From Azolla caroliniana (Eukaryota; Plantae; Polypodiophyta): 64,000 nt of DNA. Position numbers and translations under genes: made by a program. Below, piece by piece: positions 4,128 to 61,830 of this stretch (positions are counted from its first letter, which is position 1; each line of letters opens with the position of its first letter). Location: the NCBI GenBank assembly GCA_043228905.1, contig JBHGNT010000022.1, positions 1,612,001-1,676,000 on the forward strand. Reading direction: 5' to 3'. The notes under the pieces are model-generated. The model was not told the DNA's origin, ran no database searches, and saw nothing but the letters and a program-made list of their open reading frames with translations.

Positions 4128-7100
4128 CACCACAGCCAGGAAGCTTCAGCTCCGACAGGAGTTGAGCAACCTACGACAACGCGACTTGTCGATGGCGGAC
4201 TATACCTCGAAGATCAAGGATATCTGCGACTCCCTTGCCTCCATAGAGGTGAACATCGAGGAGAGCGAGATGGTCCAGATCTGTCTCGGAGGTTTGGCGT
4301 CGAAGTTCGGAGCGTTCCAAACGGCTGTGTACCCGGGAGAATACGCCGTCCTTTTTCGACTTACAGTCAATGCTCCTGGTAGAGGAGAACCACGCGGGTG
4401 CGTCTACAAGCACACACACCGACAGCAGAATGCTGTACACGAAGGGAGATAGGCCCCGTGGACGTGGAGGACGAGGCGAGTCGGCGCGCAATGGAGGCGG
4501 CCGACGAGATCAAGGAAGAAGGCACCGAAGTGATGCCAACAGCAACTCCGGACCCTCCGGAAACAGGGGGAGTCAAAGCGATGAGAACCGGCAAAGGAAG
4601 GTCATCGCGGAGTGCTGTTACTGTGGCAAGAAAGGCCACAGGGAAAGTGAGTGCTGGAAGAAGCGCGCCGATTCGGAGAGAACCGGTTCCGGAAACGGCT
4701 CCGGACATACCGACAAGGGAAATCGGCAGTGATCGCACTACGCCGAAGACTCCGAGAGAGCCGAAGAAGGGTTTGCGTTCGTGACGAGACACAAAGCAAA
4801 CTCAATGAAACGGACCACCCTGAGATCGGACGAGGTGTGGTACGTAGACTCCGGCGCGTCAAACCACATGACGAGCCATAAGGAGTGGTTCTCGTACCTT
4901 GAAAAACCGATACAACCTGGAGTAGTAGCAACTGGAGACGACACTCCGCATCCGATCGCGAATGTCGGAGAAGTTCCCCTTAGCCATGTCGGGTAGAAAG
5001 GGAAACTCATGAACGTGCTGCACGTTCCGACAATCACGAAGAACTTGGTCTCGGTCAGACAGATCGTCGACCAAGGGATGGAGGTTCGGTTTACACACCT
5101 TGGGTGCTTCATTGAGGAAGAAGGCCGTGTGATTGCGCAAGGGCGCAGAGACGGGAGGATGTTCATCCTCGATTCCACTGACGACGGCACCGCAATGTTT
5201 GCGAAGGGACAAAAATCTGAGTCGGACATCGACTTGTGGCACAAGCGGATAGGCCACGTCAACTACCAGCGGCTTCAAGATCTGCAATCGAAACAGGTAG
5301 TGTTCGGATTGCCCAAATTTAGTGGCCGAAAGGCACAAATTTGTGAAGCCTGCCAGCTCAGGAAGCAACACCGACTTCCTTTCCCCAACGAGCGAAACCG
5401 GAGCCGGAACAAGCTCGACCTTATACACTCCGATGTATGGGGGCCGGCACAAAACGTTAGTCTTGGCGGGAGCTGATATTTCGTCTCCTTCATCGACTAC
5501 CACACGCGGCACACGTGGATCTACCTCATTGAGAGGAAGAGCGAAGTCTTCGACTGTTTCCGGGACCTCAAAGGGTTCGTGGAAACGGAAACGGGACGAA
5601 AGATCAAGTGCCTGTGGTCGGATGGCGGGAAAGAGTACTTTTCTGGTCAATTCAACGGTTATCTACAACAAATGGGAATTCGGCGTGAATTCAGTTGTAG
5701 ATACACACCGGAGCAGAACGGCGTGGCCGAGAGGAAGAATCGGTCAGTTGTGGAAGTGGCACAATCAATGTTGGAGGAGAAGAGCTTGCCCAAGTTCTAC
5801 TGGGCCGAGGCGGTAAGGACCGCGGTATACATCCAGAACCGGATCGGAGACAAAGTGTCGGCGCACGAGCTATATTTCGGAACGAAGCCGAACTTGCGAC
5901 ACTTGAGGGTGTTTGGTAGCATTGCGTATGTGCATGTACCGAAGGAGAAAAGGAGGAAGCTGGACTCAAAGGCCGAGAAATGCATCTTGGTCGGTTACTC
6001 GGACGAGCAGAAGGGTTATAAGTGCTATAACCCTCGCACTAAACAAGCGCGTGTTAGCCGCGACGTTGTGTTTGACGGGTCTGCGTCCTGGTACCAGCCC
6101 CCGACTCCGAACCCCGACTCCAATCCGAGTTCTGACGATGAGGTCAGCGAGGCTGAGATGCCTCCGGATGAGCCCGAAATCGAGACCCGCGAAGAGAGTC
6201 CGATTTCACTCCGTTTAAGTGGACCGATTGGACGACTGAGTCGGTACGATCAATCCGATGAAGAGCTGGCCAGTAGTGGAGACTCGGCCGTGCATTCCCC
6301 CGCGCAGGAAGTCGAGGAGACGGCTTACGCGCAAAGAGAAAGGGAAGAAGAAGGTGTCGGATTCCGGCACGGATAGGAACGAGTCAGACCGACGCGAGTC
6401 CGACTCCGAGGGAACCGGTGACGGGTCTTTAAAGGTGAAGTCCGCGTCGACCGAGAAGGGCTCGACATCGGCTAATGTGAGATTACGCCGATCTACCCGC
6501 CAGAAGAATCTTGTTTTGCGGTTCGGATACAACGAGTACATGGCGCATCATTATGCGTACATGACCCGTGTAGCGGAAGTGCGTGAGCCGGAGAGCTACG
6601 CAGAAGCGGCTAAAGACGCGAATTGGCGTGCCGCGATGGAGGAAGAGATGCACGCATTGGCGGAGAACGAGACCTGTGACCTGGTTGACACACCAACAGG
6701 GGTAAAACCGATCGGGTGTAGGTGGGTGTACAAGGTCAAGTACAACACCGATGGCTCGGTCAACCGGTACAAGGCTCGGCTAGTGGCAAAGGGCTACGCG
6801 TAGAAACACGACATCGACTACGATGAGACGTTTGCGCCGGTCGCGAAAATGACGACCGTCCGTGTTTTGCTCGTAGTAGCTGCGGTGAAGGGGTGGCACT
6901 TACATCAGATGGATGTAAAGAATGCGTTCCTGCAAGGTGACCTTGAAGAACAGGTGTACATGGTACAGCCCCCCGGATTTCACTCTGGAACGAACTCCTC
7001 GGTAGTATGCCGACTAAAGAAGTCCCTTTACGGACTGAGGCAAGCCCCGCGTGCCTGGAACGCGAAGATCACGCAACAACTGCGTCGGATGGGCTTCGTC

Positions 7101-17371: not shown

Positions 17372-19293
17372 GATGGCATAGCCGAATGATAAGATATCTT
17401 GCGGATATCGCCATTCCCTTACATACAACAGTACACAAAGTTCCTTTTCAGTGGACAAGTGTGGAACATGATGCATATGATTGTCTGAAGAAAATGTTGG
17501 CCAAAGTTCCAATCGTTCAACCACTTGATTGGAATAAGCCATTCCATGTTTTTGTCGACGCATCGGACATCGCAATCGGAAGTGCATTAATGCAGTTAAC
17601 CGAACTGAATTGGTACAGGCCAGTTTACTATGCTAGTCGGAAACTCTCGACAACAGAAAGAAATTACTCTACCACTGAGAGGGAAGCTTTAGGAATGATC
17701 TATAGTGTCAATAAATTTCGACACTATCTTTTGGGGAAAAAGTTTACGTTTCATGTTGATCATTCGGCTCTTCTTTATTTGGTCTCGAAACAAGAGTTAA
17801 CTGGCAAGTTAGCAAGATGGACTCTTCTACTCCAAGAATTCGAATTTGACATTTTACATCGGCCAGGAGTACAACATGCAGTGGCCGATTATCTCAGTCG
17901 ACTGGAGTCAAGAGAAGAAGGCACAAGTGTCAAGGATGATTTTCCGGATGGCCAACTTTTTCGAGTGGACGCAGTAAATGCATAGGTTGTAAATGAAGAA
18001 AGTGAGGATGGTTGGATCTCAGAAATGACAATCTTTCTTACAACAGGGTTACCACCCAAGCATCTGTCGGCAGACGAAAGGAAAAGGTTGGCAGTACGGA
18101 GTCGTAATTTTTGTCTTTTGAACGACACTCTATATCATAAAGGAGGATATGGTATTTGGAGAAGAACAGTACGACAATTTGAAAAATTGGTCATTCTTCG
18201 GGAATCACATTGTGGAATTGCAGGAGGAAACTATGCTGGAGAAACCACAACAAGAAAAATATGGAACAGTGGCTTATGGTGGCCGACAGTGATGAAGGAT
18301 GCAGTCGAATATTGTCAGAAATATGATTTATGCCAACGTATGAAACAACCGATAGAAAAGGACCGGATGCTGTTTCAACCTGTGTTACCTCTTGAACCTT
18401 TCTAGAAATGGGGTTTGGATTTTGTAGGCCCATTCAAACCGGCAACAGTAAGAATAGGCAATAGATATATTATAGTGGCCACTGACTACTATACGAAGTG
18501 GGTAGAAGCTAAAGCTCTTAGGGATAATACGGCAGCTTCAACAACAAAATTTTTGTACAAAAGTATATGGTGTAGATTCGGCTGCCCAATAGAATTAGTG
18601 GGCGATCAAGTTACGCATTTCAAATTGTCTACCTACTATGCAGTGGTTCATAAGAAAAGCATGCCTTACTATCCACAAGTGAATGGATTGGCAGAGTCAA
18701 CAAACAAAACCCTACAGACAATACTCAAGAAGATAGTAAATGAGAATCGTACGGACTGGGATCAAAAGTTGCATAGTGCTTTATGGGCATATCGCACGTC
18801 GTACAAAACATCTATTAAATCAACACCTTTCCGAATGGCTTTCGGATTGGAGGCAGTTATGCCAATCAAATTCCAGATTCCGACACTTCGAATACAAGCA
18901 ACCAAAAAATTAAATGAACTACAATCGAAGCAATTTTGGAAAGAATCTTTATTGATGTTAGAAGAAGACCGAATACAAGCTATGACAGCTTTGGAGCACA
19001 AGCAAAGGCAAACGAAGGCATTTGTAAATTGACACTGACGAAAAACCGAATCTCAATTCGGAATCGGGAAACCATTACTGGTTTTCTAGACCAAGATGGG
19101 GGCGATGCCAGGAAAACTTCGGTATAGATGGACGGGACCAGTTTGGATCGTGAACAGTAAAAATGGTACGTATCATCAACTAGGAGCACTATTAGGTGAG
19201 ATTTTACCGAAATGGGTCAATGGTTTCCGACTTAAGCCATATCATGGACACATGCAAGAAAATCCATTCAAGGCTGAACCGGAAGAAAAGTAA
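17372..19293 (+). pseudogene. C1 RT connection, RNase H and integrase
   Basis: FVDASDIAIG, ERNYSTTEREAL, HCG...GLWWP, DFVGP, NGLAESTNK, WAYRT. Confidence 0.9.
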
Positions 19294-19642
19294 AAAAAGA
19301 AAAAAAAACTAACTATAGAATATTTTCTTGCCAAATCATAACTAACTGTCACGAAAAGATTCTTGGAGTAATTTCAGAAGGCTATAAGTAAAAGTAGTGC
19401 AAACATATTTCTATTAGTCATGATTACTATTTCTAGCCATTACTCCACTAGTACGCCTAGTCGTTACCACATTAATAGTACTTTTATTCCCTAGGCATCA
19501 TGCAAAAAATTATTCCCTTAAAAAACCTATTTCTGTAATGATTGTTTCACCACAGAAGTAGAAATGCATTCGACCTCACAGGTTTTCTGATCTTATTCGC
19601 CATAGCCCAAACCGTTTCTCACCGCCACCACAGAGTGACGAT

Positions 19643-22262
19643 CTGTCAATCGACGATGACAACATGCCGATTGTCGTATCTGATAACCTGCGTCGCTGGC
19701 TCATTCACAATAATTTACAAGGATTCTTGAAAGGCGCAGAAGCAGAACCGCACCCGAACGCGGAAGCTTTGATGGCAGAAATCGATGTCTCGACGATCAC
19801 AAATAAGAAGGTAAGAGCCGTGTTGGAGATGCCAAGAGGCGGGTTCGACGCTGTTAACAAGGTCACAGAGGATGGTTTGCGGTCCTATTTCGGTGAATAT
19901 TTTCTCTCTGCCAAAGCGTATCAGACACAAGGAGGTAGGGACATGTTTTTTCATGAAGTTGCAAAATTTTTATTGGAAGTAGGGTTTGTTAGTCCGAGAT
20001 TCTACTGTATGCCCAAAAAGAGGGCCGGATTTATCCTCGCCGCTTATGAAGGCGAAGCTTTCGATTGGGGGCTACTGTCGGCAGATGCTCTGAGAGAGCA
20101 ACTGAATGGAGTTTAGAAGGGAAAACCAATGAAGCCGATTTTTGCTCGTTGGTTATCAGTATTATTTCCGACTTCAGAGCCGGAAAACCGATCAGAGGTG
20201 CATCGGCCGCCTCAGGTATAGTCATCCCGAACCCGATGACAAGTCCAACGGGAAGAGTGGAGGGAAGAAGAATCAACGCAGGACGATACCACTCAGACCG
20301 AATTTGACCAACCGGACCCAAGGCAACAACAAGAATCAGAACAACAACAGTCGACGCAGTCTCAACAGTCGACACCACAACCCGAACTTGCCCAACAATT
20401 GTCGACTCAACAATTGAAGTTTCAACCACAGAGGACACAACAACCCTCACAACAACAGGAATCCTCACAACAGCAGGAATCGAGATGAGTCAACATTGAC
20501 CAACAACCGCTGAAGCAACGCAGGGGTTAAACAACGGTCCCAAAGATATTCTAGACCAGAGCAAGAACAACCTGCGTAGAAGAAATAGAGAACTAACGAT
20601 CAAGCCACCCAAAGCACACAAGTACCTCGTGTCAATCCAGATGACACGTCAAGAGTTCAAAAAGGGCAGGCATCAACGACAACGGTGCAAGAGGCACTCG
20701 GTTTTTCTGACATCCCGACAATAGCACATGAGCTAGCTGCCATTCTGTAGTTCGGAACATCATATGAACTGGTAGAATGGTTAGCTAAAAGACTTCAAGA
20801 AGTGTCAGAAAGAACGGCGCAAGAGCACCGAGATCAAATAATGATCCAAAAGTCATTATGTGGAGCTGTCGAACCCAACGAGCACGCGGAAGTGGATAGA
20901 ATTGGTCGATAGCAAAATGCTAAAAATAGAGGTGAAGCCATTCAGATAACACCATTACATCAGGCACTGGTGGAAGTCCACTGAGAATATGAAAAGGCTA
21001 GCAGAGCGGCCAGGGATATGGCCGAATTATACAAATAGGCTACAACAACTGCATATGTGCTTAATGCACAGTATAAACGGATGCAGGCAGAAAATCAACA
21101 GTTGAAGAATAAACTGCAAGAAGAACAAGTGGCTCTAGAAAAAGCGAGAGAATAGATATTACAGCCAGAGTCACAAAGACAACCTTTGGAGACGGATTCG
21201 GAATTACAAAAGAGGTTGGACCAAGCCGAAAAAGCACGAAGAGAGGCAGAAATTAGGGCAGAAAAGACCGAAGACAGGTCTAGAGAAATGGAGGCTCGAT
21301 TACAGTTGGCAAAAACGACGGCCGACAGATGTTTGGGGGAAAAAGATAATGTGATACAAGATTTACGCCGACAGTTAGCCCAACAGCAAGAGGCTACAAG
21401 GCAACAAGTCGAGGAACTGGAAGAGTATTTCAACATCCAAGAGACTTGTTTTACAACACAGTTGGCTGGTAAAGACAAGCTAATAGACGAAATCAACAAA
21501 AAAATGATTCAGCAGCAGAACGATTGGAATGAAGAGAAAGCGAAGCTAGAAAACCGATGTGCAGAAGTTCAAACGGTCTTCGAGAAAAGGCGACTGGACC
21601 TCTTAGTGGCACAAGCTAAATTGATGCAGGCAGAAGGGCATACCAATGCGGTAATCATTGATTTGCGGAAAACATTGGCAATATCACAATTTGTGGCTAG
21701 AATGACTCAGGATAGGGTTCAATCAATCATTAGACGTCATTGACTTAACACCCTAAAATTGGTCAATGAATCGCTGGAGAAGGGCTGGCAAACATGGTCG
21801 GCGCAAGCCGCGGAGCTTCAGCTATTAAGAGCCAACAGAGAAAATAGGAAAGTTCAGAGGAAAGGCTTCCTTAAGATGTCAGAGGAAGCAATGACCACAG
21901 TTCAAGAAGATATTGCTAAGGACCTATACGACATGGCGGCTTATTTTAGAGAAGAAATTAACCGAATCATGCAGGAATTCGACAAGCATGATGTCGAGAC
22001 ATCCGTCGAGTTAGACAATATCGAAGCCGAAAGAATAACCAAAACACTTGGACTCGGAGCACCAGAGTCAGCAGAGCCAAGACCATCGACCAGAGAAGCC
22101 CGCCAGGAAAACAATGACGGGGAGGGCACCGAAGATAAAGACGAAGACGAGGTAGGCGTGGCAACATAGGAAGCAGAACCCTCATTATTCGACATTCTGC
22201 AGGACGACGCAGACGATGATTTGGAGATGAAGGAAGATCTTTCCTTAGAGCAGTAGGAGTGA
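19643..22262 (+). pseudogene. C1 extra sense ORF2 (globular N-terminus, Q/P/T linker, long coiled coil, acidic tail)
   Basis: Pieces 19664-20116, 21186-21743, 21759-22169; colinear homolog in C2. Confidence 0.8.
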
Positions 22263-44049: not shown

Positions 44050-46478
44050 CTTGGCATGCCCATGGGCCAGGATGTTGTCCTGTGAACCCACGGTAACCCC
44101 TTCACTCCTGTTGCTCTGAGGGATGATCTTCCTCCAAATCATCGTCTGCGTCGTCCTACAGAATGTCGAACAATGAGGGTTCCTCTTCTTGTGGTGCCTT
44201 ATTGACATCGTCTTCTTCGTCTTCGGTGTCCTCCTCGTCGTTGTTTTCCTGGTGTGCTTCTTCGGTCGATTGTCTTGGATCTGCTGAATCCGGTGCTCCG
44301 AGTCCAGGTGTTTTGCTTACTCTTTCGGCTTCGATATTGTCTAACTCGATGGACGTATCGACATCATGCTTGTCGAATTCTTGCACGATTTGGTTAACTT
44401 CTTCTCTGAAATAAGCCGCCATGTCGTATAGGTCTCTAACAATATCTTCCTGAACCGTGGTCATTGCTTCCTCCGACATCTTGAGGAAACCTTTGCCTTG
44501 AACTTTTCTATTTTCTCTATCGGCTTGTAATAGTTGAAGCTCTGCAGCTTGCGCCGACCATGTTTGCCAACCCGTCTCTAGTGATTCATTGACCAATTTT
44601 AGGTTGTTAAGCTGGTGACGTCTTATGATTGCTTGAACTCTGTCCTGAGTCATACTTGCCTCAAACTGTGTCGTTGCCAATGTTCATCGTAAATCAGTGA
44701 TTACTGCATTGGTATCGCCTTTGGCCTGCATCAGTTTGGCTTGTGCCACTAAGAGGTCAAGTCGCCTTTTCTCGGATACCGTTTGAACTTCTGCACATCG
44801 CATTTCCAGCTTCTCTTTCTCCTCATTCCAGTCGTTCTGCTATTGAATAATTTTTCCGTTGATTTCTTCTATCAGTTTGGCTCTTCCAACCAACTTTGTT
44901 GTAAAACAAGTCTCTACTTGTTTCGCATTTTTCCTTGTAGCCTCTTGCTGCTGGAGTAACTGTCGGTGTAAATCTTGTATCAAATTATCTTTTTCCTCTA
45001 AGCATTTGTCGGTCGCTGTTTTTGCCGACTGTAATCGATCCTCCATTTCTCTGGATCTGTCTTCGGCCTTTTCTGCCCTAATTTCCGCTTCTCTTTGTGC
45101 TTTTTCGGCTTGTTCCAACTTATGTTGTAGCTCTGAATCCGACTCCAAAGGTTGGCTTTGTGACTCTAGTTATAATATCTGCTCTCTCATTTTCTCTAGA
45201 ACCACTTGTGCTTCCCGCAGTTTACCCTTCAACTGCTAATTTTCTTCATGCTTCCGTGTATACTGTGCATTAAGCACATGTGTTGCTGTTGTTGCCCTTT
45301 TGTATAATTCAGCCATATCCTTGGCTGCTCTACTAGCCTTTTCATATTCCCTGTGGACTTCGACCAGTGCCTCATGTAGTGGTGGCATCTGGATGGCTTC
45401 ACCTTTATTTTTAGCATTTCGTTGTCGACCAATTCTATCCACTTCTGCTTGTTCATTGGGTTCGACAGCTCCACATAATGACTTTTGGATCATTATTTGA
45501 TCCCGGTGCTCTTGCGCCATTCTTTCCGAGACTTCTTGGAGTCTTTTAGCTAACCATTCTATCACTTCATATGACGTTCCGAACTACAGAATGGCAGCTA
45601 GCTCATGTGTTGTTGCCAGGATGTCGGAAAAACCAAGTGCCTCTGGCACCATTGCCGTTGATACATGCCCTTTCTGAATTCGTGACGTGTTATCGGGATT
45701 GACACGAGGTACTTGTGTGCTTTGGGAGGCTTGATCGTCGGTTCTCTGTTTCTTCTACGCCGGTTCTTCTTGCTCTGGTCTAGAATATATTTGGGACCGT
45801 TGTTTAACCCTGCGCTGCTTCGGCGGTTGTTGCTCTGTGTCGACTTGTGTCGATTCTTGCAGTTGTGTTTGTTGCTCACCTATCGTCTCTTGTTGTTGCG
45901 TCCTCGGTGGTTGAAACTCCGGGTGTTGAGTAGTCGGTTCCTGGTCAGGTTCGGGTTGCGGTGTCGACTGTTCCGATTTTTGTTGTTGCCTTGGTTCCGA
46001 TTGGTCGAATTCGGTCTGAGTGGTATCGTCCTGTGCCAATTCTTCTTCCCTCCACTCTTCCTGTTGGACTTGTTGTCGGGTTCGGGATGACTGTACCTGA
46101 GGTGTCTTACGCACCTCTGATCGGTTTTCCGCCTTTGGAGCCGGAAATAATATCGATAACCAACGAGCAAAAATCTTCTTCATTGGTTTTCCCTTCTGAA
46201 CTCTGTACAGTTGCTCTCTTAGAGCTTCTGCCGATAGTAGCCCCCAATCAAAAGCTTCTCCTTCATAAGCGGCGATGATAAATCCGGCCCTCTTTTTGGG
46301 CATACAATAGAATCTCGGACTAACAAACCCTACTTCCAATAAAAACTTTGCAACTTCATGAAAAAAGACATTCCTACCTCCTTGTGTCTGATACGCTTTG
46401 GCGGAGGGCGAATACTCACCAAAATATGAACGCAATCCTTCTTCTATGATCTTCTTGACAACGTCGAACCCGCCTCTT

Positions 46479-46931
46479 TGTCATCATATGGCAAGACTCG
46501 AACCCATGACCTTATGCTACATGGGTCGAGCTCTTACCATTAGACTATGAATTGTAATTTGTAGGATATTATTTTCATTTATGCTTTATCATAGAAAATT
46601 GATGTATATTCCAGATCTCTCTAGAACATTCTAGAAGCTTCAGGATTATTCCTAAAAACATTATAAAAGGAGGCACAAGGCATTGTTTTGAACCAAATTG
46701 GTTCAACGCCAGTCTTAAGCCTCTTAGCCGATTTGTACTTATCTTTTCACATAATATAAGAGTTGCTGTCATCATCCTTCTCTCTCTCTCTTTCTCGCTA
46801 TCTCTCTCTTCTCTTCTCTTCTCTTCTCACTTTCTCTCTCGGGAATCTTACGCAGTCCCGTCCTCTTAGTACTAATAGTATTGCTCTTCTTTAGTACTAA
46901 TTCCATCTCTGCTTTAGTACTACTCCTGACA
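46479..46931 (+). repeat. E 5' LTR
   Basis: tgtca...tgaca; roughly ten substitutions plus small indels versus the 3' LTR. Confidence 0.93.
46623..46642 (+). promoter_or_regulatory. Heat-shock element in the E LTR (also at 51852-51871)
   Basis: aGAAcaTTCtaGAAgcTTCa = four alternating nGAAn units, 20 bp upstream of TATAAAA. Confidence 0.6.
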
Positions 46932-46945
46932 GTTTGAACCAATTT
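46932..46945 (+). promoter_or_regulatory. Non-tRNA (self-priming) PBS of E
   Basis: ttgaaccaattt is complementary to aaattggttcaa at 46695-46706. Confidence 0.75.
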
Positions 46946-46970
46946 TTCCTCCTACCCTTTTCCCTATACT

Positions 46971-48128
46971 ATGGCTACTGTTAGCGCCCAAGAATATCAA
47001 TCCGTTTTCTCCGACCTACAGTGCTTAAAAGAAAATTTTGTTGCCTTGGAACAAGAAAACCAACGGCTGATAGGGGATCTGCAACAAATCTCTCTAGAAA
47101 AGCAACAAATGCAGCAACAACATGGGGAGTTAGCGTTACAGGTGCAACAACTCGAAGCGGCATTGCAACAACAAGGATCAAGTCCCCAAGGATTTCATAA
47201 AGAGCCGAAGATTGGACTTCCTGTGAAATTTGATGGAACGCGATCGCAATTCAGGGGATTCCTTAATCAGGTACGATTAGTCCTCCAAATGCATCCTTCC
47301 CGATACCCCACTGATGCATCCCGAGTCGGCTTAATAGGCACATTGCTTAGCGGCTCAGCCTTAACATGGTTCGCTCCGCTCCTAGAAAAACAATCGCCCT
47401 TGCTTAATAACTTTGAAGATTTTATTAGTGAGTTAAAAGCCTGCTTTGGAGACACCGACAGCATCAGGACGGCGATCAACAAGATCCGGCGATTGCGTCA
47501 AGGCGATCGTCCAACCTCTGCCTACGCGGCGGATTTCCGCCTACTCGCTTCAGACATACCCTGGGATGATCAAGCACTAATGGAGCAGTTTCGCTATGGC
47601 CTGCGAAACGATCTCAAAGATCTACTTCTAACTTTCCCCGAAGAACCAAAGTCTCTTACGGAGGCAATCAGTCGAGCGGTCCGATGTGACAACTGCCTTT
47701 TCGAACGGCGTTCGGAACGTCAATTACAAATACCACGCGCTAGGCCGGAGCCCACTTACGCCGCAGTCGCGGCTAAACCGTTTGCACGAGACATACCTCA
47801 AGCAAATACTTCGACACCAATGGAGATCGATACCATGCGTCGACGCGGCCCGTTATCAGAAGAAGAAAAGCAACGACGACGTGCAAATCGATTATGTCTT
47901 TATTGCGGTGGACCAGGGCATATCGCAATCAATTGTCCCCATAGGCCAAGAAGACAGGTAAATCAAATTGTAGCCTGTACTAAACCCGAGTCAATTCTTC
48001 CCTTAGGAGTGTCTAATAGTATTAATAGTACTAATAGAGTGTTTGATAGTATTCATAGTACTAATAGCCCAAGTATCTCAAATAAATTTGAAATCCTTAG
48101 TCAATTAGATGAAGAGTTAAATGATTGA
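46971..48128 (+). CDS. E gag, intact, 385 aa
   Basis: Coiled coil, PVKFDG, capsid region, PMEID, CLYCGGPGHIAINC. Confidence 0.92.
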   Translation: MATVSAQEYQSVFSDLQCLKENFVALEQENQRLIGDLQQISLEKQQMQQQHGELALQVQQLEAALQQQGSSPQGFHKEPKIGLPVKFDGTRSQFRGFLNQVRLVLQMHPSRYPTDASRVGLIGTLLSGSALTWFAPLLEKQSPLLNNFEDFISELKACFGDTDSIRTAINKIRRLRQGDRPTSAYAADFRLLASDIPWDDQALMEQFRYGLRNDLKDLLLTFPEEPKSLTEAISRAVRCDNCLFERRSERQLQIPRARPEPTYAAVAAKPFARDIPQANTSTPMEIDTMRRRGPLSEEEKQRRRANRLCLYCGGPGHIAINCPHRPRRQVNQIVACTKPESILPLGVSNSINSTNRVFDSIHSTNSPSISNKFEILSQLDEELND

Positions 48129-51100
48129 GTCCAGCCAAAATAGGAGTCGTTTGGTTGGACAGCAGCCCTAGATCTGTACAGCCCATTAGTGGTTCCATTC
48201 CTTCCAAGCAAGTTAGCAATGTGTTCCTAGCCCAAGTCATTGTTAGTACTAAAAGTACTCCCCCAGTACCCGTCCTAGCACTTTTAGATTCCGGAGCTAA
48301 TTCCTATTTCATGGATCAAAATTTTGCCCAAGCTTCTCAGATATCCTTAAGAAAACTTCCTTGTCCCGCAGCTGTAGTAGTCATTGATGGTCGTCCCATT
48401 GCTTCCAGGAATATTGTAGAAGAATCAGAACCCATTCAAGTTGTCCTAGGTAGTTTTGTGTGTGTAATATCATTTAATATAATTAGTAGTCCAGAGCATC
48501 CCATTGTCCTAGGATTACCTTGGTTTAAATTACATAATCCAGCCATAGATTGGAGAACAAGAGAAGTCCGATATCGACCACCCCAAGAATCAACTCACCG
48601 AGTTTCGACCATTTCACTCCATCAACTACGCGAAGAAGGACCCAAGGAGGCAATGTTCCTATTTGCAATATCAGTACATCCTTCCAACACTATTAAGAAG
48701 GACTCCTCAGTACAACTTCCAGCAAAATATCATCCTTATGCCGATGTATTTGACAAGGTAAAAGCCGGTACCCTTCCTCATCACCGTCCCTATGACTGTC
48801 CCATCGATTTACAACCAGGAACCGAGCCACCATGGGGACCAATTTAAAACTTGTCACCCACCGAGTTAGAAGTCCTTCGAGCCTACATAGAGGAGAACTT
48901 GGCAAGTGGGTTCATCCGTCATTCGAAATCTCCGGCTGGTGCACCCATCTTCTTTGTCAAGAAGAAAGATGGCTCACTTCGTCTTGTCGTTGATTACCGC
49001 GGATTGAATAAAGTCACCATCCGGAATAGGTATGCACTTCCTCTTATATCAAGTCTTTTAGAGCGAGTTAATGGTGCCAAGTTTTTTACTAAAATCAACC
49101 TACAAGGAGCGTATAACCTCGTGCGGATCCGACCGGGAGATGAATGGAAGACCGCCTTTCGCACGCGGTATGGGCATTTCGAGTATACTGTTATGCCGTT
49201 CGGCCTAACCAATGCACCCGCAGTCTTCCAACACATGGCAAATGATATATTCAGAGACCTCTTGGATATCTGTTTGATCATTTATCTGGATGATCTATTG
49301 ATTTATTCGAAGACCCAGGAAGAGCACGATTCTCATGTACTATTAGTACTAAAGTGACTCCGCGAGAATGGTCTTTATGCCAAGCTAGAAAAATGTAGCT
49401 TTGACTGCAAGCAAGTGGAATTTCTAGGCTACGTCATCTCCTCAAAGGGCATCGCCATGGATCCAGCTAAAATCCAAACTGTACTAGAGTGGCAAATTCC
49501 ACGGTCGGTACGAGATGTACAATGTTTTCTAGGTTTTTCTAACTTCTACCGTAAGTTTATACAGGATTACTCGAAGATTATTTTACCTCTCACACAACTT
49601 ACGAAGAAGGGCCAAGAATTTCTTTGGTCCATAGAAGCAGATATGGCTTTTCGGCATCTTAAGAAAGCCTTTACATCAGCACCGATTCTAGCTCATGTGG
49701 ATACAAGAAAACCATTCATCATGGAGGCCGACGCATCAGATTTCGCCCTCGGTAGCATCCTTTCTCAACCAGGAGATAAAGAAGAGTTGCATCCGGTGGC
49801 TTTCCATTCGCGCAAATTCGATGTCACAGAAATCAACTACGAAATACATGACAAGGAGTTATTAGCCATCGTGGATTCATTTGTACAATGGCGGCATTTT
49901 TTAGAGGGCTCTCCACATCAGGTCATTGTCTTTAGCGATCATAAAAATCTTGCTTATTTTCAGAACGCTCGCGTACTAAATCGACGGCAAGCTCGGTGGG
50001 CGCAATTCCTCACGCGTTTCGACTTCAAAATCACATATCGACCGGGGAAGCAGCAAGGAAAAGCAGATGCACTATCACGGCGTTCATATCTTGCACCTCG
50101 TCCTGGTGATGCAACATTTGATCATCAAAAGCAAGTAATCTTGGGACCAACACGATTGCACACGACGCAGATTTTTCACACCCCGATGGATTCACGGATT
50201 ACCGATGACATACATGCAACCTTGAAGACGGATAGTTTTGCTCAAGACATCCTGGCGCACATTGATACTTCTCGGGCATCGTGTTCTCGGTCTCAACAAC
50301 CAGGTATTGACTACCGACAATTCGAATATCATGATGGTTTGTTATTCTTTAAGAAGCGCGTATATGTCCCTGATTGCTCCTGTCGCCTTCAAATTGTCCA
50401 GCATTGTCACGACACCCATACGGCGGGACATTTCGGTAGTACTAAGACGTTGGAGCTAGTGCAGTGATCTTTTTGGTGGCCCCACATGCGCCGTTTTGTC
50501 GACGACTACGTTCGGACCTATGATGCTTGCTGCCGAGCGAAGATGCCACGACACCATCCATATGGCTTGTTGGAACCCTTACCGATTCCAAGTAAGACGT
50601 GGCAGTCTATTTGTCTTGATTTTATCACAGATCTACCAGTCTCGAAGGGGTTTGATGCTATCCTAACCATCGTCGATCGATATACGAAGATGGCACATTT
50701 TGTGCCGTGTACTAAAGCCATCACTAGCGAGGAAACCGCCGCCCTTGTTATGCGTGAGGTATTTCGGCATCATGGCCTCCTAGACAGTATCATCAGCGAC
50801 CGAGGACCGCAATTTGTCTCCAAATTTTGGCAGCATCTCTTCAAGATGCTCAAGGTCTCCTGCAATCTCTCCTCCGGCTACCATCCTCAGACCGACGGGC
50901 AAGCGGAACGAACAAACCAAACGTTGGAGCAATATCTCCGGTGTTTCCTGAGTTATCAACAGGACGATTGGGCCGAGATTCTCCACTTTGCAGAGTTTGC
51001 GTATAATAATGTTATTCACTCCTCGACTCGGGTCTCCCCATTTTTCGCTTATACCGGTTTTCATCCTCGTTGGTCGGTGATCGACACCCCGGAGCTACCT

Positions 51101-51696
51101 ACCAACCCTCGTGTCGAGGATCATTTGGAGAGGCTACACAAGATCCAGATGGATCTCTCTACTCACCTTCGTCATGCTCAACACACACAGAAGACTTATG
51201 CGGATCGTCATCGGATTCCCTCCTCTTTTGCCATCAGAGATCGAGTATGGCTCTTACGTCGTCACATCAAGACTACTCGACTGTGCGACAAGTTGGATTA
51301 TCGACGACTCGGTCCCTTCCGTATTATGGGTAAGATTAATGATGTCACATTCCGCCTTGATCTCCCTCCGCGCTTCAGATACATCCGGTTTTCCATTGTT
51401 CTCTTCTTGAACCTTATAAAGCAAACACCATTCCCGATCGTGTGACACCACCGCCGCCCCTGCTGGAGTTGGACGTCGGGCCGGAATATGAAGTTGCTGC
51501 CATCCTCAATTCCAAACTTGTTCGCAACAAACTTTATTACTTGGTCGATTTGCTCCGTTATAGTCCGAGCGAACGTACTTGGGAACCCGTCGAGCATGTT
51601 GCCAATGCATAGGATCTTCTTGCTGATTTCCACCGAAAGTATCCGGACAAACCCGGTTCGCAATTAGCGCCGACTCGTTCCACTCGTCGTCTTTAA
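48125..51696 (+). pseudogene. E pol (protease, RT, RNase H, integrase, chromodomain) with in-frame stops and a late frameshift
   Basis: LLDSGA, YLDD, EADAS, ISDRGPQF, and EYEVAAILNS...TWEP after 51440. Confidence 0.92.
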
Positions 51697-51707
51697 GGGG
51701 GAGATAG

Positions 51708-52154
51708 TGTCATGATATGGCAAGACTCGAACCCATGACCTTATGCTACATGGGTCAAGCTCTTACCATTAGACTATGAATTATAATTTGTAGGATATTA
51801 TTTTCATTTATGCTTTATCATAGAAAATTGATGTATATTCCAGATCTCTCTAGAACATTCTAGAAGCTTCAGGATTATTCCTAAAAACACTATAAAAGGA
51901 GGCACAAGGCATTGTTTTGAACCAAATTGGTTCAACGCTAGTCTTAAGCCTCTTAGCCGATTTGTACTTATCTTTTCACATAATATAAGAGCTGTTGTCA
52001 TCATCCTTCTCTCTCTCTCTTTCTCGCTATCTCTCTCTCTCTTCTCTTCTCACTTTCTCTCTCGGGAATCTTACGCAGTCCCGTCCTCTTAGTACTAATA
52101 ATACTGCTCTTCTTTAGTACTAATTCCATCTCTGCTTTAGTACTAGTCCTGACA
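51708..52154 (+). repeat. E 3' LTR
   Basis: Matches the 5' LTR. Confidence 0.93.
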
Positions 52155-52714
52155 CTCTTGGCATCTCCAACGCCGCTCTTACCTTCTTATTAGTGATCTT
52201 AGAGACATTGATTTCTTCCATTAGAGCTTCAGTGTGCAGGTGCGGCTCTGCTTCTGAGACTTTCAAGAATCCTTGTAAATTATTGCGAATGAGCCAGCGA
52301 CGCAAGTCATCAGATACAGTAATCGGCATATTGTCGTTGTCGATTGACATATCGTCGCTCTGTGGTGGCGGTGGAAAACATTGTGGGCTATGGCAGAGAA
52401 GATCAAAAAACCTATGAGCGCGAATACATTTCTACTTCTGTGGTGAAACAAACATTACAAAAATAGGTTTTAAGGAAATAATTCTTTGCATGATGCCTAG
52501 GGAATAAAAGTACTATTAATGTAAGAAATGACTAGGTGTACTATGGAGTAATAGCTAGAAATAGCAATAATGACTAATAGAAGCATGCCTCCACTACTTC
52601 TTACTTATAGCCTTCTTAAATCATTCCAATATTCCCCTTTTGACAGTTAGTTATGATTTGGCAAGAAAATTTTCTATAGTTTTTTTTTGTTGTTGTTGTT
52701 GTTACGTTACCACA

Positions 52715-53909
52715 TTACTTTTCTTCCGATTCAACCTTGAATGGATTTTCCGGCATTTCTCCATGATATGGCTTAAGCTAGAAACCATGGACCCATTTCG
52801 GCAAAATCTCACCTGATAGGGTTCCCAGTTGATACGTACCATTTTTACTATTCACGATCCAAATTGGTCATGTCCATCTATACCTAAGTTTACTTGGCAT
52901 AGCCCCATCCTGGTTTGCAAAACAAGTACCACTTTCCCAATTCCGAATTGAGTTTCGGTCTTTCGTCGGTGTCGATTTACAAATGCCTTCGTTTGCCTCT
53001 GCTTGTGCTCCAAAGCTGACATAGCTTGTATTCGGTCTTTTTCTAACAGTAATAAAGATTCCTTCCGAATTTGCTCCGATTGTAGTTCATTTAATTTCTT
53101 GGTTGCTTGTATTCGGAGTGTCGGAATCTAGAATTCGATTGGCATAACTGCCTCTAATCCGAAAGCCATTTGGAAGGGTGTTGATTTAATAGATGTTTTG
53201 TACGACGTGCGATATGCCCATAAAGCACTATGCAACTTTTGATCCCAGTTCATACGATTCTCATTTACTATCTTTTTGAGTATCGTCTGGAGGGTTTTGT
53301 TTGTCGATTCCGCCAATCCATTCGCTTGTGGATAGTAAGCCGTGCTTTTCTTATGAACCACTGCATAGTATGTAGACAATTCATGAACAAGCTTGTTAAT
53401 GAAATGTGTACCTTGATCGCTCACTAATTCTATTGGGTAGCCGAATCTACACCATATACTTTCGTACAAAAATTTTGTTGTTGAAGCTGCCGTATTATCC
53501 CTAAGAGCTTTAGCTTCTACCCACTTTGTGTAGTAGTCAATGGCAACTATAATATATCGATTGCTTGTACTTACTGTTGCCGGTTTGAATGGGCCTACAA
53601 AATCCAAACCCCATTTCTGGAAAGGTTCAAGAGATAACACAAGTTGAAACGGCATCCTGTCCTTTTCAGTCGGTTGTCCCATACGTTGGCATAAATCACA
53701 TTTCCGACAATATTCTACTACATCCTTCATCACTGTCAGCCACCATAAGCCACTGTTCCATATTTTTCTGGCTATGGTTTCTCCAGCATAGTGCCCTCCT
53801 GCAATTCCCGAAGAATGACCGATTTTTCGAATTGTCGTACTGCTCTTCTCCACATACCATCTACTCCTTTATGATACAGAGTGTCGTTCAAAAGAAAAAA
53901 ATTACGACT
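52715..53909 (-). pseudogene. C2 integrase remnant
   Basis: ORF 53128-53853 with DFVGP, SDQGTHF, WAYRT. Confidence 0.9.
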
Positions 53910-60160: not shown

Positions 60161-61600
60161 TCAAAAGAGAGTCCCTGCTGGGGCAGCTGATTCGGTGGTG
60201 GTGGTGGTGTCGTCGGCCGGGATTAAGGCGGAGGAGATCGGGGATCGGCCCAGCTCATACGCAACTCGTTGCCGGAAGAGCTCCCCGTTCTCACGCTCCT
60301 CCACGGGGGCATCCAGCGCCTCATTGATGGAGCCCTCTATGTTGGCATAGTACCCGGCGCTGTTCCGGTACAGCTCCGCCACCATGCCCATCTGCATGTC
60401 ATTCGAGAAGCTCCCGGCAAATGCCGCCATGGCGCTGCAGGCGGCCGCCATTACCCCCAAATGCTGGGTGATGCCGATTGGGCCAGTGGCCACGAGCACC
60501 GGCTGTGCCGCGTTCAGGAGGGCCGCCGCCGCCGCTAGCATGGGCGCCGCTATAGCCAGGGATTTGTTGATCTTCACCACGTTCGTCGCCCAACTGGTGT
60601 ACGTCTTAATGTCCGAGCGGCGGAGGCGGGCGGCGACGCCCCGGAGCTCCGCCTCCAGGTCCGCATTCCAGCCGCCGCTCCGCACCCCTGCTTCTTCTTG
60701 GGCTTCGGATCTCTGGTCGGGGACGATGGGGCCGCTTGGGCGGGCGAGAGGGGCGATGAGCAGGGGAGGGAGCATTTGGGATGGGAACTTCTCGAGGCCG
60801 CCCGGCGTGAGCGGCATGGGGAAGGCTTTGTCCAGCGCTTCCAGGCGGCGGCGGCAGTCCCGCAGAACAACCGCCGATGGCTGCCGGAGATACGGCGCCG
60901 CTTTGATCGCATAATCGATGTCGCTCACCAGTTTGCGGAAGAGGCGAGCCGCGGTCCTCTGCTCCTCGGCCAGCTGAGAGGGCTGGAACTGGTTTATGAC
61001 CGACATCATGGCGGCGCCGCCGGCGTTGAGAAGGGCGGCCGGCAGGGTGAGGCTGGCGACATTGGCGGAGATTTGGGCGGCCGCCATGGCGCCGCTGAGG
61101 GCGGCCAAGACGGTGGCGGTCATGGAGGTGGCGGTGAGGGTGTGCTGGAAGAGCTTGTTCCAGTTGTCGCGCTGGGTGGCCAGGATGGCGTGCATCTCGG
61201 CTCGGTCGGAGGCGGCATTGGCCACTAGGCGGAGCTCCGCCACGCGGAAGGCCTCCGCCGCCGCCGCCGCCTCTTCAGTGGCGGTGGGGCTGGGTTGCTG
61301 GCGGTGGAGGGGGGTGTGGGCGTCCCAGAAGGAAAGGGGGTCATCTCTCATGGAGGTGTAGCTACTGCTGGCAGCGGCGGACTGGTCCTGCGGGGGGGTG
61401 AGGCGCGGCGGCGCTTTGGTGGCGGAGGAGGAGGAGGAGGAGGAGGAGTCGGGGGTTTGCTGAGAAGCATTAATGGCGCGGCGGCGGAGGCGAGAGGTGG
61501 CAGAAGAGAGGGAGATGAGGCGTGGATGATGATGCGTGAAGGAGTCGTGAGAATTCGGAGCGGCGGCGGCGGTGGCGGCGATGGCGGCGATGGCGCTCAT
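60161..61600 (-). CDS. Intronless host gene, At4g22030-like / petal-formation-expressed family, 479 aa, possible plastid transit peptide
   Basis: DRAEMHAILATQRDNWN, QPSQLAEEQRTAARLF, LDKAFPMPL...LEKFP, ELYRNSAG, ERENGELF motifs recognised from this family. Confidence 0.88.
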   Translation of the reverse strand: MSAIAAIAATAAAAPNSHDSFTHHHPRLISLSSATSRLRRRAINASQQTPDSSSSSSSSATKAPPRLTPPQDQSAAASSSYTSMRDDPLSFWDAHTPLHRQQPSPTATEEAAAAAEAFRVAELRLVANAASDRAEMHAILATQRDNWNKLFQHTLTATSMTATVLAALSGAMAAAQISANVASLTLPAALLNAGGAAMMSVINQFQPSQLAEEQRTAARLFRKLVSDIDYAIKAAPYLRQPSAVVLRDCRRRLEALDKAFPMPLTPGGLEKFPSQMLPPLLIAPLARPSGPIVPDQRSEAQEEAGVRSGGWNADLEAELRGVAARLRRSDIKTYTSWATNVVKINKSLAIAAPMLAAAAALLNAAQPVLVATGPIGITQHLGVMAAACSAMAAFAGSFSNDMQMGMVAELYRNSAGYYANIEGSINEALDAPVEERENGELFRQRVAYELGRSPISSALIPADDTTTTTESAAPAGTLF

Positions 61601-61830
61601 AGCAGGCGGCGGAATATATAGAGAGAGAGTGTGTGTTGTTGTGCTTCTATTGATGGCTAAAATTGGAGATAGAGAGATAAAAATAGAGACAATTATTGCT
61701 CGCTCTTTGTTTTGGCTTGGCTTTGGTTCGATCTCTGTGTCTCTTTGTTTCTTCTGTTTTTCTGTCTTTTGCTGCTTCTTTCTTCTTCTCTCACAATTCC
61801 TTCATATAAACTCATAGAGACACATATACA

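Follow-up and report, generated by a model that had tools for sequence, protein, structure and literature searches.

Antisense tRNA-type boxes in the LTRs of an Azolla chromovirus

The window analyzed here, a stretch of 64,000 nucleotides (nt) from Azolla caroliniana (contig JBHGNT010000022.1, positions 1,612,001 to 1,676,000 of the forward strand), contains a 5.7-kb element of the Ty3/gypsy type with the target site duplication (TSD) CTCTT. Both long terminal repeats (LTRs) of this element carry, in the U3 region and on the minus strand, sequences corresponding to the A and B boxes of a tRNA gene:

46479..46931, plus strand: 5' LTR of the Ty3/gypsy chromovirus, 453 bp, TG...CA ends, TSD CTCTT
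46537..46547, minus strand: A box, tRNA positions 8-19 (TAGTCTAATGG), T8 at 46547
46508..46512, minus strand: variable-loop motif AGGTC, tRNA positions 44-48, in exact register
46495..46504, minus strand: B box, tRNA positions 52-61 (GGTTCGAGTC), G53 at 46503
51708..52154, plus strand: 3' LTR, 447 bp
51766..51776, minus strand: A box of the 3' LTR, T8 at 51776
51724..51733, minus strand: B box of the 3' LTR, G53 at 51732

An earlier note on this DNA had described antisense boxes at a tRNA-like spacing of 45 nt, present in both LTRs and lacking a cloverleaf, and all three observations were confirmed. It mentioned neither the AGGTC motif nor the hairpin described below. The distance from T8 to T54 in the 5' LTR is 45 nt, and a strict pattern of both boxes matched the window twice, once per LTR, where 100 Markov simulations gave 0.05 expected matches. 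ARAGORN found no tRNA gene, and an Rfam search of the window and 20 relatives returned no tRNA match at E ≤ 10. The same database yielded no 5S rRNA or other meaningful match, the motifs being of the tRNA type. Scored with a weight matrix built only from 13 host tRNA genes, some of them organellar-looking, the window boxes reached 29.3 bits, within the 26.7–38.9 bits of the host tRNAs, and they lie at a spacing workable for a type-2 RNA polymerase III (Pol III) promoter. The plus strand scored 9.6 bits and the best of 300 dinucleotide shuffles 15.3 bits, the shuffle comparison being one of maxima.

The same scoring was applied to 123 LTR starts, consisting of 113 of the 148 matches to the polypurine tract (PPT) that had an upstream chromodomain and 10 LTR-related ones that were re-added. 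All 20 of their own shuffles were outscored by 113 of these starts; in 106, a B box scoring 10 bits or more lies no farther than 60 nt from the LTR end. Traces of a short interspersed element (SINE), namely a TSD, a body or an A/T-rich tail, were not visible in the window sequence, and an old capture would have lost them; a relaxed scan of the window for other box-bearing elements gave scattered matches at other spacings, which were not traced to LTRs. The boxes are not a tRNA but tRNA-type promoter boxes, lying antisense in the LTR.

The element and its classification

The remaining parts of the element are as follows:

46620..46636, plus strand: heat-shock-element-like array (GAAnnTTCnnGAA) in U3
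46662..46668, plus strand: TATA box of a putative RNA polymerase II (Pol II) promoter
46695..46706, plus strand: predicted self-primer at the probable RNA 5' end, 12 nt complementary to the primer-binding site
46932..46945, plus strand: primer-binding site (PBS) of the self-priming type, directly 3' of the 5' LTR
46938..48128, plus strand: gag frame, stop to stop, with Retrotrans_gag, Ty3_capsid and zf-CCHC
48125..51696, plus strand: pol with protease, reverse transcriptase (RT), RNase H, integrase, SH3 and a chromodomain-like end, its frame broken by stop codons and a frameshift
51695..51707, plus strand: PPT, recognized from its sequence

The two LTRs differ by substitutions at 8–10 of 447 positions and by a single 6-nt gap. 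The domains stand in Ty3/gypsy order with a C-terminal chromodomain, as in Tcn1 chromoviruses, and a Pfam Chromo match was obtained in L070, an intact sister copy of the window element. The chromodomains of intact sister copies contain the residues Y, W and Y at what we take to be the aromatic-cage positions. No tRNA-type PBS is present behind the window 5' LTR; a sequence complementary over 12 nt to the self-primer stretch is found there instead, and that stretch lies about 30 nt downstream of the TATA box. Such a layout has been predicted for most Tcn1 elements (Neumann et al. 2019, PMC6317226), and the accounts cited report plant Tcn1 elements from mosses and club-mosses only (PMC6317226; PMC2864245). 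From its sequence, the element is classified as a Tcn1-like chromovirus that is predicted to self-prime, the quick tree used (56 rows) containing no reference Tcn1 elements. In the 523-Mb genome, 767 exact junctions of PPT and LTR start of the window-element type were found, and a looser PPT pattern gave no more matches than its control, mostly at non-LTR loci.

The array at 46620..46636, presumably a heat-shock-element motif, comprises three units; shuffles averaged 0.10 and none of 2000 contained as many. In many related chromovirus LTRs (the window, L116, L184, L175, L098, L094, L251, L280 and L281), arrays of up to 8 TTCnnGAA repeat units separate the boxes from the TATA box, while some families have none. 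Within the self-primer region, plus-strand positions 46700–46710 read GGTTCAACGCC, which fits the classical B-box consensus and is not kept in all families.

Conservation of the boxes among distant LTR families

A protein-profile search of metagenome contigs gave 80 loci, 57 of which had a readable LTR start, and these were grouped with 22 copies from this genome into 29 LTR families at 70% identity. Of the 29, 23 have an antisense B box scoring 7.5 bits or more. It lies 15–72 nt from the LTR end and is thus not fixed to the integrase end, which rules out an integrase end signal. At 35–36 nt upstream of G53, TGG is present in 14 of the 23 families and GG in 16; in host tRNAs the same spacing is 34–37 nt. 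The background from other distance pairs averages 2.8%, and the pair 35/36 represents the two commonest host tRNA distances, the pair 34/35 giving 5/23.

Among the 16 families, unanchored promoter positions were kept almost without exception (T8 and R9 in 16/16, A14 in 15/16, G46-T47 in 16/16), while positions that matter only for tRNA structure were lost (T33 in 6/16, A37 in 3/16). Stem pairing was close to that expected from composition for the D (0.61 observed, 0.57 expected), anticodon (0.39, 0.35), T (0.55, 0.58) and acceptor (0.52, 0.41) stems. Together with the ARAGORN and Rfam results, the near-chance stems and the loss of T33 exclude a tRNA gene. The boxes are conserved at promoter positions while tRNA structure has been lost. 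The kept positions equal the minimal boxes of plant SINEs, RVTGG and GTTCRA with a spacer of 25–50 nt (the SINE-Finder boxes; PMC7315354). In the quick tree, the box label requires 4 changes, and 31 of the 32 rows of one well-supported branch carry the box.

Spread through the genome and into non-chromovirus Gypsy elements

The pattern ATGG-N32/33-GGTTCRANTC matched the genome 8,753 times, compared with 101 matches for a reversed-pattern control, and 3,752 of the sites have the narrower form typical of the window clade. Twenty loci with unlike spacers were hand-picked among the first 100 matches listed; several of the twenty were not assigned to an element. Two of the loci, L324 and L327, are full Gypsy elements of about 8 kb with no chromodomain match, an RT only 27–29% identical to that of the window element and a PBS matching host tRNA-Trp; L325 and L326 are their gag-only relatives. 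All four have the antisense pair in both LTRs, and the pair is present twice in L327 and in L330. The boxes had first been noticed in the LTRs of a single chromovirus, where they do occur, and their distribution is wider, extending to non-chromovirus Gypsy LTRs.

In every LTR that could be oriented by PBS, PPT or open reading frame, the boxes are antisense. They are found 160–740 nt into U3 in non-chromoviruses, and the pair is located upstream of a TATA-like box, by 180–245 nt in the L324–L327 elements and by 114 nt in the window. At 21 distinct non-Tcn1 sites, T8 is kept in 16, R9 in 19, G10 in 15, A14 in 20 and G46-T47 in 20. Around the B box, L325 and L326 share 18 of 20 nt with the window LTR, a hint of exchange or a shared source in place of independent captures. 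Both gag-only elements (L325 1660-4875 and L326 1838-5437) have a tRNA-Trp PBS and LTRs that are 100% identical, and so appear to be recently mobile non-autonomous elements. In L281, from a metagenome, 21 nt at the LTR start are identical to a copy of host tRNA-Lys(TTT) from the 3' strand of the anticodon stem to the T loop, a hint at a donor or at renewed capture.

Conservation among close subfamilies

For the close relatives of the window element, 11 rearranged or unrelated starts were dropped and clustering was done on U3 columns outside the boxes. Over 8 subfamilies (80 copies), fixed differences occurred at none of the 10 invariant box columns, and within the boxes they fell on the degenerate positions 9 (A/G), 11 (C/T), 12, 57 (A/G) and 59; G10 was also variable. 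Net divergence was 0.010 in invariant box columns and 0.115 in other U3 columns (Mann-Whitney p=0.014, Fisher p=0.03). The earlier note would have abandoned its proposal had the boxes been no more conserved than the neighbouring U3 and shown no Pol III occupancy. They are more conserved: boxes and spacing persist where the rest of U3 aligns poorly or not at all. The note's suggestion of a tRNA or SINE origin is likewise supported.

The boxes could still be a neutral relic of a tRNA or SINE insertion that was inherited by descent. Related families would share them anyway since LTRs are copied whole, the near-clade statistics are only moderate, and some families have lost the boxes. On the other side, at least ten box positions are retained amid spacers and flanks that diverge and vary in length, no stretch shared by the window LTR with the LTRs of L195 and L165 scores higher than the B-box block, and the pair recurs in lineages as distant in RT as L324 and L327. 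The conservation results largely refute a neutral relic, to which we attach little credence. Sequence comparison instead indicates that the boxes are real and under selection in several coding Gypsy lineages.

A clade-specific hairpin and the case for a Pol III transcript

The boxes of the window lie in a region that can fold back on itself:

46488..46540, no strand assigned: long, imperfect hairpin in which the half with the A box pairs with the half with the B box, pronounced in the window clade and missing from most distant families

The window hairpin has a predicted energy of -31.4 kcal/mol (z -5.45), and none of 200 shuffles was equally stable. Sister subfamilies keep or lengthen it, L070 extending the stem by matched changes (z -6.3), and L195-type LTRs have a short terminal hairpin. 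These features would be expected if selection acted on a hairpin at the beginning of U3, as an aid to end processing or plus-strand priming, with the tRNA likeness as a by-product. We give this almost no credence: most distant families keep the boxes without the hairpin, and the distance from the LTR end ranges over 15–72 nt and reaches hundreds of nt in non-chromoviruses. A universal hairpin was rejected, as z falls below -2 in just 5 of 23 family representatives, and the hairpin is thus a secondary, clade-specific feature.

The strong hairpin of the window clade also bears on the possibility that the boxes form a working Pol III gene whose RNA product matters, read outward from a 5' or solo LTR, antisense from the 3' LTR, or as a hairpin precursor of small RNAs. 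In one variant, the RNA would tune the element's own silencing or copy number, as with the Pol III microRNAs of foamy-virus LTRs, which provide a precedent (PMC3993851). Both boxes are kept at tRNA spacing, and not the B box alone, and the first run of four T residues (T4) reached from the 3' LTR lies 1,593 nt downstream inside pol, so that a transcript would be antisense to integrase. An oligo-T terminator close behind the B box is lacking in the window, where the first T4 for the 5' LTR is reached after 70 nt and belongs to the flank. Within the LTR, a T4 run follows the B box in just 9 of 23 families, at 1–20 nt; the hairpin is not general, and the spacer between the boxes is not conserved, which argues against a common RNA product. 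A functional Pol III transcript thus appears unlikely, although its chance is not negligible.

Possible pairing with host tRNAs

The antisense orientation is what would be needed if the motif acted in the genomic RNA as a 3' tRNA-binding site of the Ty3 type. Its sense strand would then base-pair with two parts of a host tRNA, the D loop and the variable loop/T arm, so as to package, dimerise or bridge the RNA. Ty3 provides an example, its U3 being paired with two arms of the primer tRNA, T and D (PMC5371799), and a 3' site in Drosophila gypsy corresponds to the anticodon and T stems (PMC1635307). In our search of 14 sampled tRNA types, runs of 12–24 nt matched host tRNAs with G-U pairs allowed, most often tRNA-Lys(TTT), whose matches are inflated because the tRNA-Lys set includes 21 array variants, and one family has 21 identical nt. 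Set against this, the window element is predicted to self-prime, and the families primed by tRNA-Trp share only AGGT and GTTCGA with their primer, do not match its T stem and have G52 where tRNA-Trp has T. Positions 10-13, 59 and 62-65 vary freely, transversions included, the site is placed far inside U3 in non-chromoviruses, and the sense RNA of the window clade folds on itself (-25 kcal/mol). We consider a tRNA-binding site quite unlikely.

Two further candidates were rejected. The first is that the U3 box pairs with the self-primer of its own element: the longest complement measures only 0–7 nt, usually 5, and changes of the primer leave the box in place. The second, targeting of Pol III genes as in Ty3, finds no counterpart in 66 flanks of 1 kb (about 7 of them internal sequence of mis-typed 3' LTRs), with no tRNA gene in any flank and a B box within 100 nt in 0/66.

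Surroundings of the element and related loci

The window holds nested Copia and Gypsy elements. The chromovirus insertion splits another repeat (44132-46478 and 52155-53909), of which an uninterrupted inverted copy is located at 18100-22226, and a host gene with PF14476 (petal formation-expressed, a domain of unknown function (DUF)) is encoded on the minus strand at 60164-61801. The nearby part of the contig has tRNA genes 80–180 kb from the window (C22 1.44-1.53 Mb). Elsewhere, contigs C5 (17.99 Mb) and C2 (20.11 Mb) are among the sites of clusters of a single tRNA type, with arrays or clusters of Lys and Ile tRNAs, and matches to the tRNA-Trp end are clustered on C8 (17.80-17.82 Mb) and C16 (4.99-5.11 Mb).

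Several loci show other arrangements of tRNA-like sequence. In L062 (1511-2219), a 354-bp unit comprising the chromodomain end, the PPT and the LTR start as far as the B box is repeated in tandem. L333 (4350-4800) contains two inverted copies of the box pair around a heat-shock-like array that resembles the array of the L175/L098 family, behind a purine tract, and L334 and L335 consist of tandem degenerate units with A/B-like boxes. On the minus strand of L328 (about 4468-4541) and L329 (about 4576-4649), a repeated tRNA-like head with a paired acceptor stem is followed by a shared body; ARAGORN at a lowered threshold calls the head tRNA-Glu, making this a candidate SINE family.

Comparison with known systems

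The closest known system is Helenus, a group of non-coding TRIMs (terminal-repeat retrotransposons in miniature) of 311–1263 bp with tRNA-derived LTR sequence (TRIMp3; Kojima 2024, PMC10886601). Here as there, tRNA-derived sequence is found in both LTRs, is conserved around boxes A and B and is not a functional tRNA, and Pol III use is a proposal in both cases. Helenus elements are however short and non-coding, and their tRNA-like part is in sense orientation (Helenus-1_SMo and three wasp LTRs were compared) and was proposed as their own promoter, whereas the elements described here encode gag-pol over 5.7–8 kb and have antisense boxes as well as a TATA box. According to the same source, autonomous elements are expected to use Pol II, sharing no long LTR stretch, and a partial likeness to a tRNA is seen in "not a few" LTRs of Repbase, its analysis covering TRIMs only (PMC10886601). 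Some cases of tRNA-like autonomous LTRs may therefore be catalogued in Repbase.

Helenus is a closer analogue than Cassandra, to which the boxes had initially been compared. That comparison stands for the origin, as Cassandra and Ajax TRIMs also captured the promoter of a small-RNA gene in the LTR (as described in PMC10886601), and it fails for the role, since the boxes found here point away from a TATA-bearing coding element. The Cassandra promoter is of the 5S type, with A, intermediate element (IE) and C boxes, belongs to a non-coding element and drives the element's own RNA from LTR to LTR (PMC10886601), while the present boxes are of the tRNA type and occur in coding elements. Heads of tRNA-derived plant SINEs have the same minimal motifs, and the spacing is within the SINE-Finder range (PMC7315354), but no SINE body, tail or own TSD was found here and the boxes are integral to U3.

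Foamy-virus microRNA cassettes likewise combine A and B boxes with hairpins, in an LTR that belongs to an autonomous retroelement (PMC3993851); there, terminators and proven small RNAs are present, whereas here neither terminator nor hairpin is conserved. The bipartite PBS of Ty3 and the 3' PBS of Drosophila gypsy resemble the boxes in that they lie toward the 3' end of the genomic RNA and are complementary to arms of a tRNA. Those sites, as far as the cited accounts describe them, match the primer tRNA over about 11 nt, whereas the positions kept here are common to all tRNAs, occur also in self-primed elements and do not follow the tRNA-Trp primer. Lastly, tRNA genes, B boxes and B2 SINEs at chromatin boundaries are TFIIIC sites beside or between chromatin domains, and in the part of PMC8136502 cited here they are not described as a built-in part of an LTR.

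Literature titles and the openings of abstracts gave no description of antisense boxes in autonomous plant Gypsy LTRs, a coverage outside which most subscription papers and bioRxiv supplements fall. What has been described are tRNA-derived LTR boxes proposed to serve non-coding TRIMs as their own promoter; the boxes reported here face backward, in coding elements.

A putative TFIIIC site as chromatin barrier

Facing outward, the boxes cannot promote transcription of the element itself, and backward boxes in coding elements must serve the element otherwise than as its own promoter. The kept positions are those that TFIIIC reads on DNA in type-2 promoters, and work in yeast has dealt with tRNA genes and B boxes as chromatin boundaries. 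TFIIIC binds B boxes and is often found at chromatin boundaries (PMC8136502). We propose, giving it an even chance, that the antisense U3 boxes, probably derived from a captured tRNA gene or SINE, are a TFIIIC site on DNA and would form a chromatin barrier next to the Pol II promoter of the element. The score of the window boxes within the host tRNA gene range counts in favor of such a site. TFIIIC would bind the B and A boxes and place TFIIIB on the AT-rich stretch of U3 between the A box and the heat-shock array, and occupancy by both factors would keep the Pol II promoter region open and stop heterochromatin from spreading in from the flank, a role that would suit elements residing in repeat-dense DNA. 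Each new insertion and each solo LTR would add one TFIIIC site, amounting to thousands in the genome. Some outward or antisense Pol III transcription may accompany the barrier, although no conserved terminator is present. LTR relatives were present in contigs of 3 of 4 sequencing runs of uncertain RNA status, in contigs that carry no strand or start information.

Several observations weigh against a TFIIIC site, which is a prediction from DNA sequence. The A box may be weak, as G10 is retained by just 3 of the 16 families' representatives, and in one young subfamily position 14 is G. Five B-box families have TGG at 42–44 nt and others at still different distances. The representatives were chosen by best B score, B box and GG served as anchors, and the families share ancestry, so that the binomial p of the cross-family test overstates the evidence. 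AGGT at positions 44-47 is better kept than a classical B box demands, and positions 45-58 could pair with a host tRNA as well. Furthermore, 6 of the 29 families are without a scoring box; two of these look decayed and four are distant chromoviruses (about 56–61% protein identity), indicating that the box is dispensable for such elements. The near-clade test gives modest support, Fisher p=0.03 holding at one clustering cut only; at a finer cut one invariant A-box column varies and the values become 0.17 (Fisher) and 0.024 (Mann-Whitney). Methylation of LTRs may moreover block TFIIIC on most copies.

More tentatively, the boxes could be a portable U3 module for TFIIIC/Pol III, swapped between chromovirus and non-chromovirus Gypsy elements, that would insulate a stress-inducible Pol II promoter in heterochromatin, with LTRs supplying most TFIIIC sites and boundaries of the genome; we regard this wider proposal as possible yet somewhat doubtful. 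If true, given the approximately 9,000 pattern-matching sites, LTRs and not tRNA genes would provide most of these sites and boundaries. Thousands of calls of tRNA pseudogenes or SINEs in such genomes would, as a warning to annotation, be parts of LTRs. If the boxes bind TFIIIC, they would be a built-in means for a retrotransposon to remain expressible in heterochromatin, and every insertion or solo LTR would plant a boundary. The question of how chromodomain-bearing elements that target silent chromatin get transcribed at all would thereby become directly testable.
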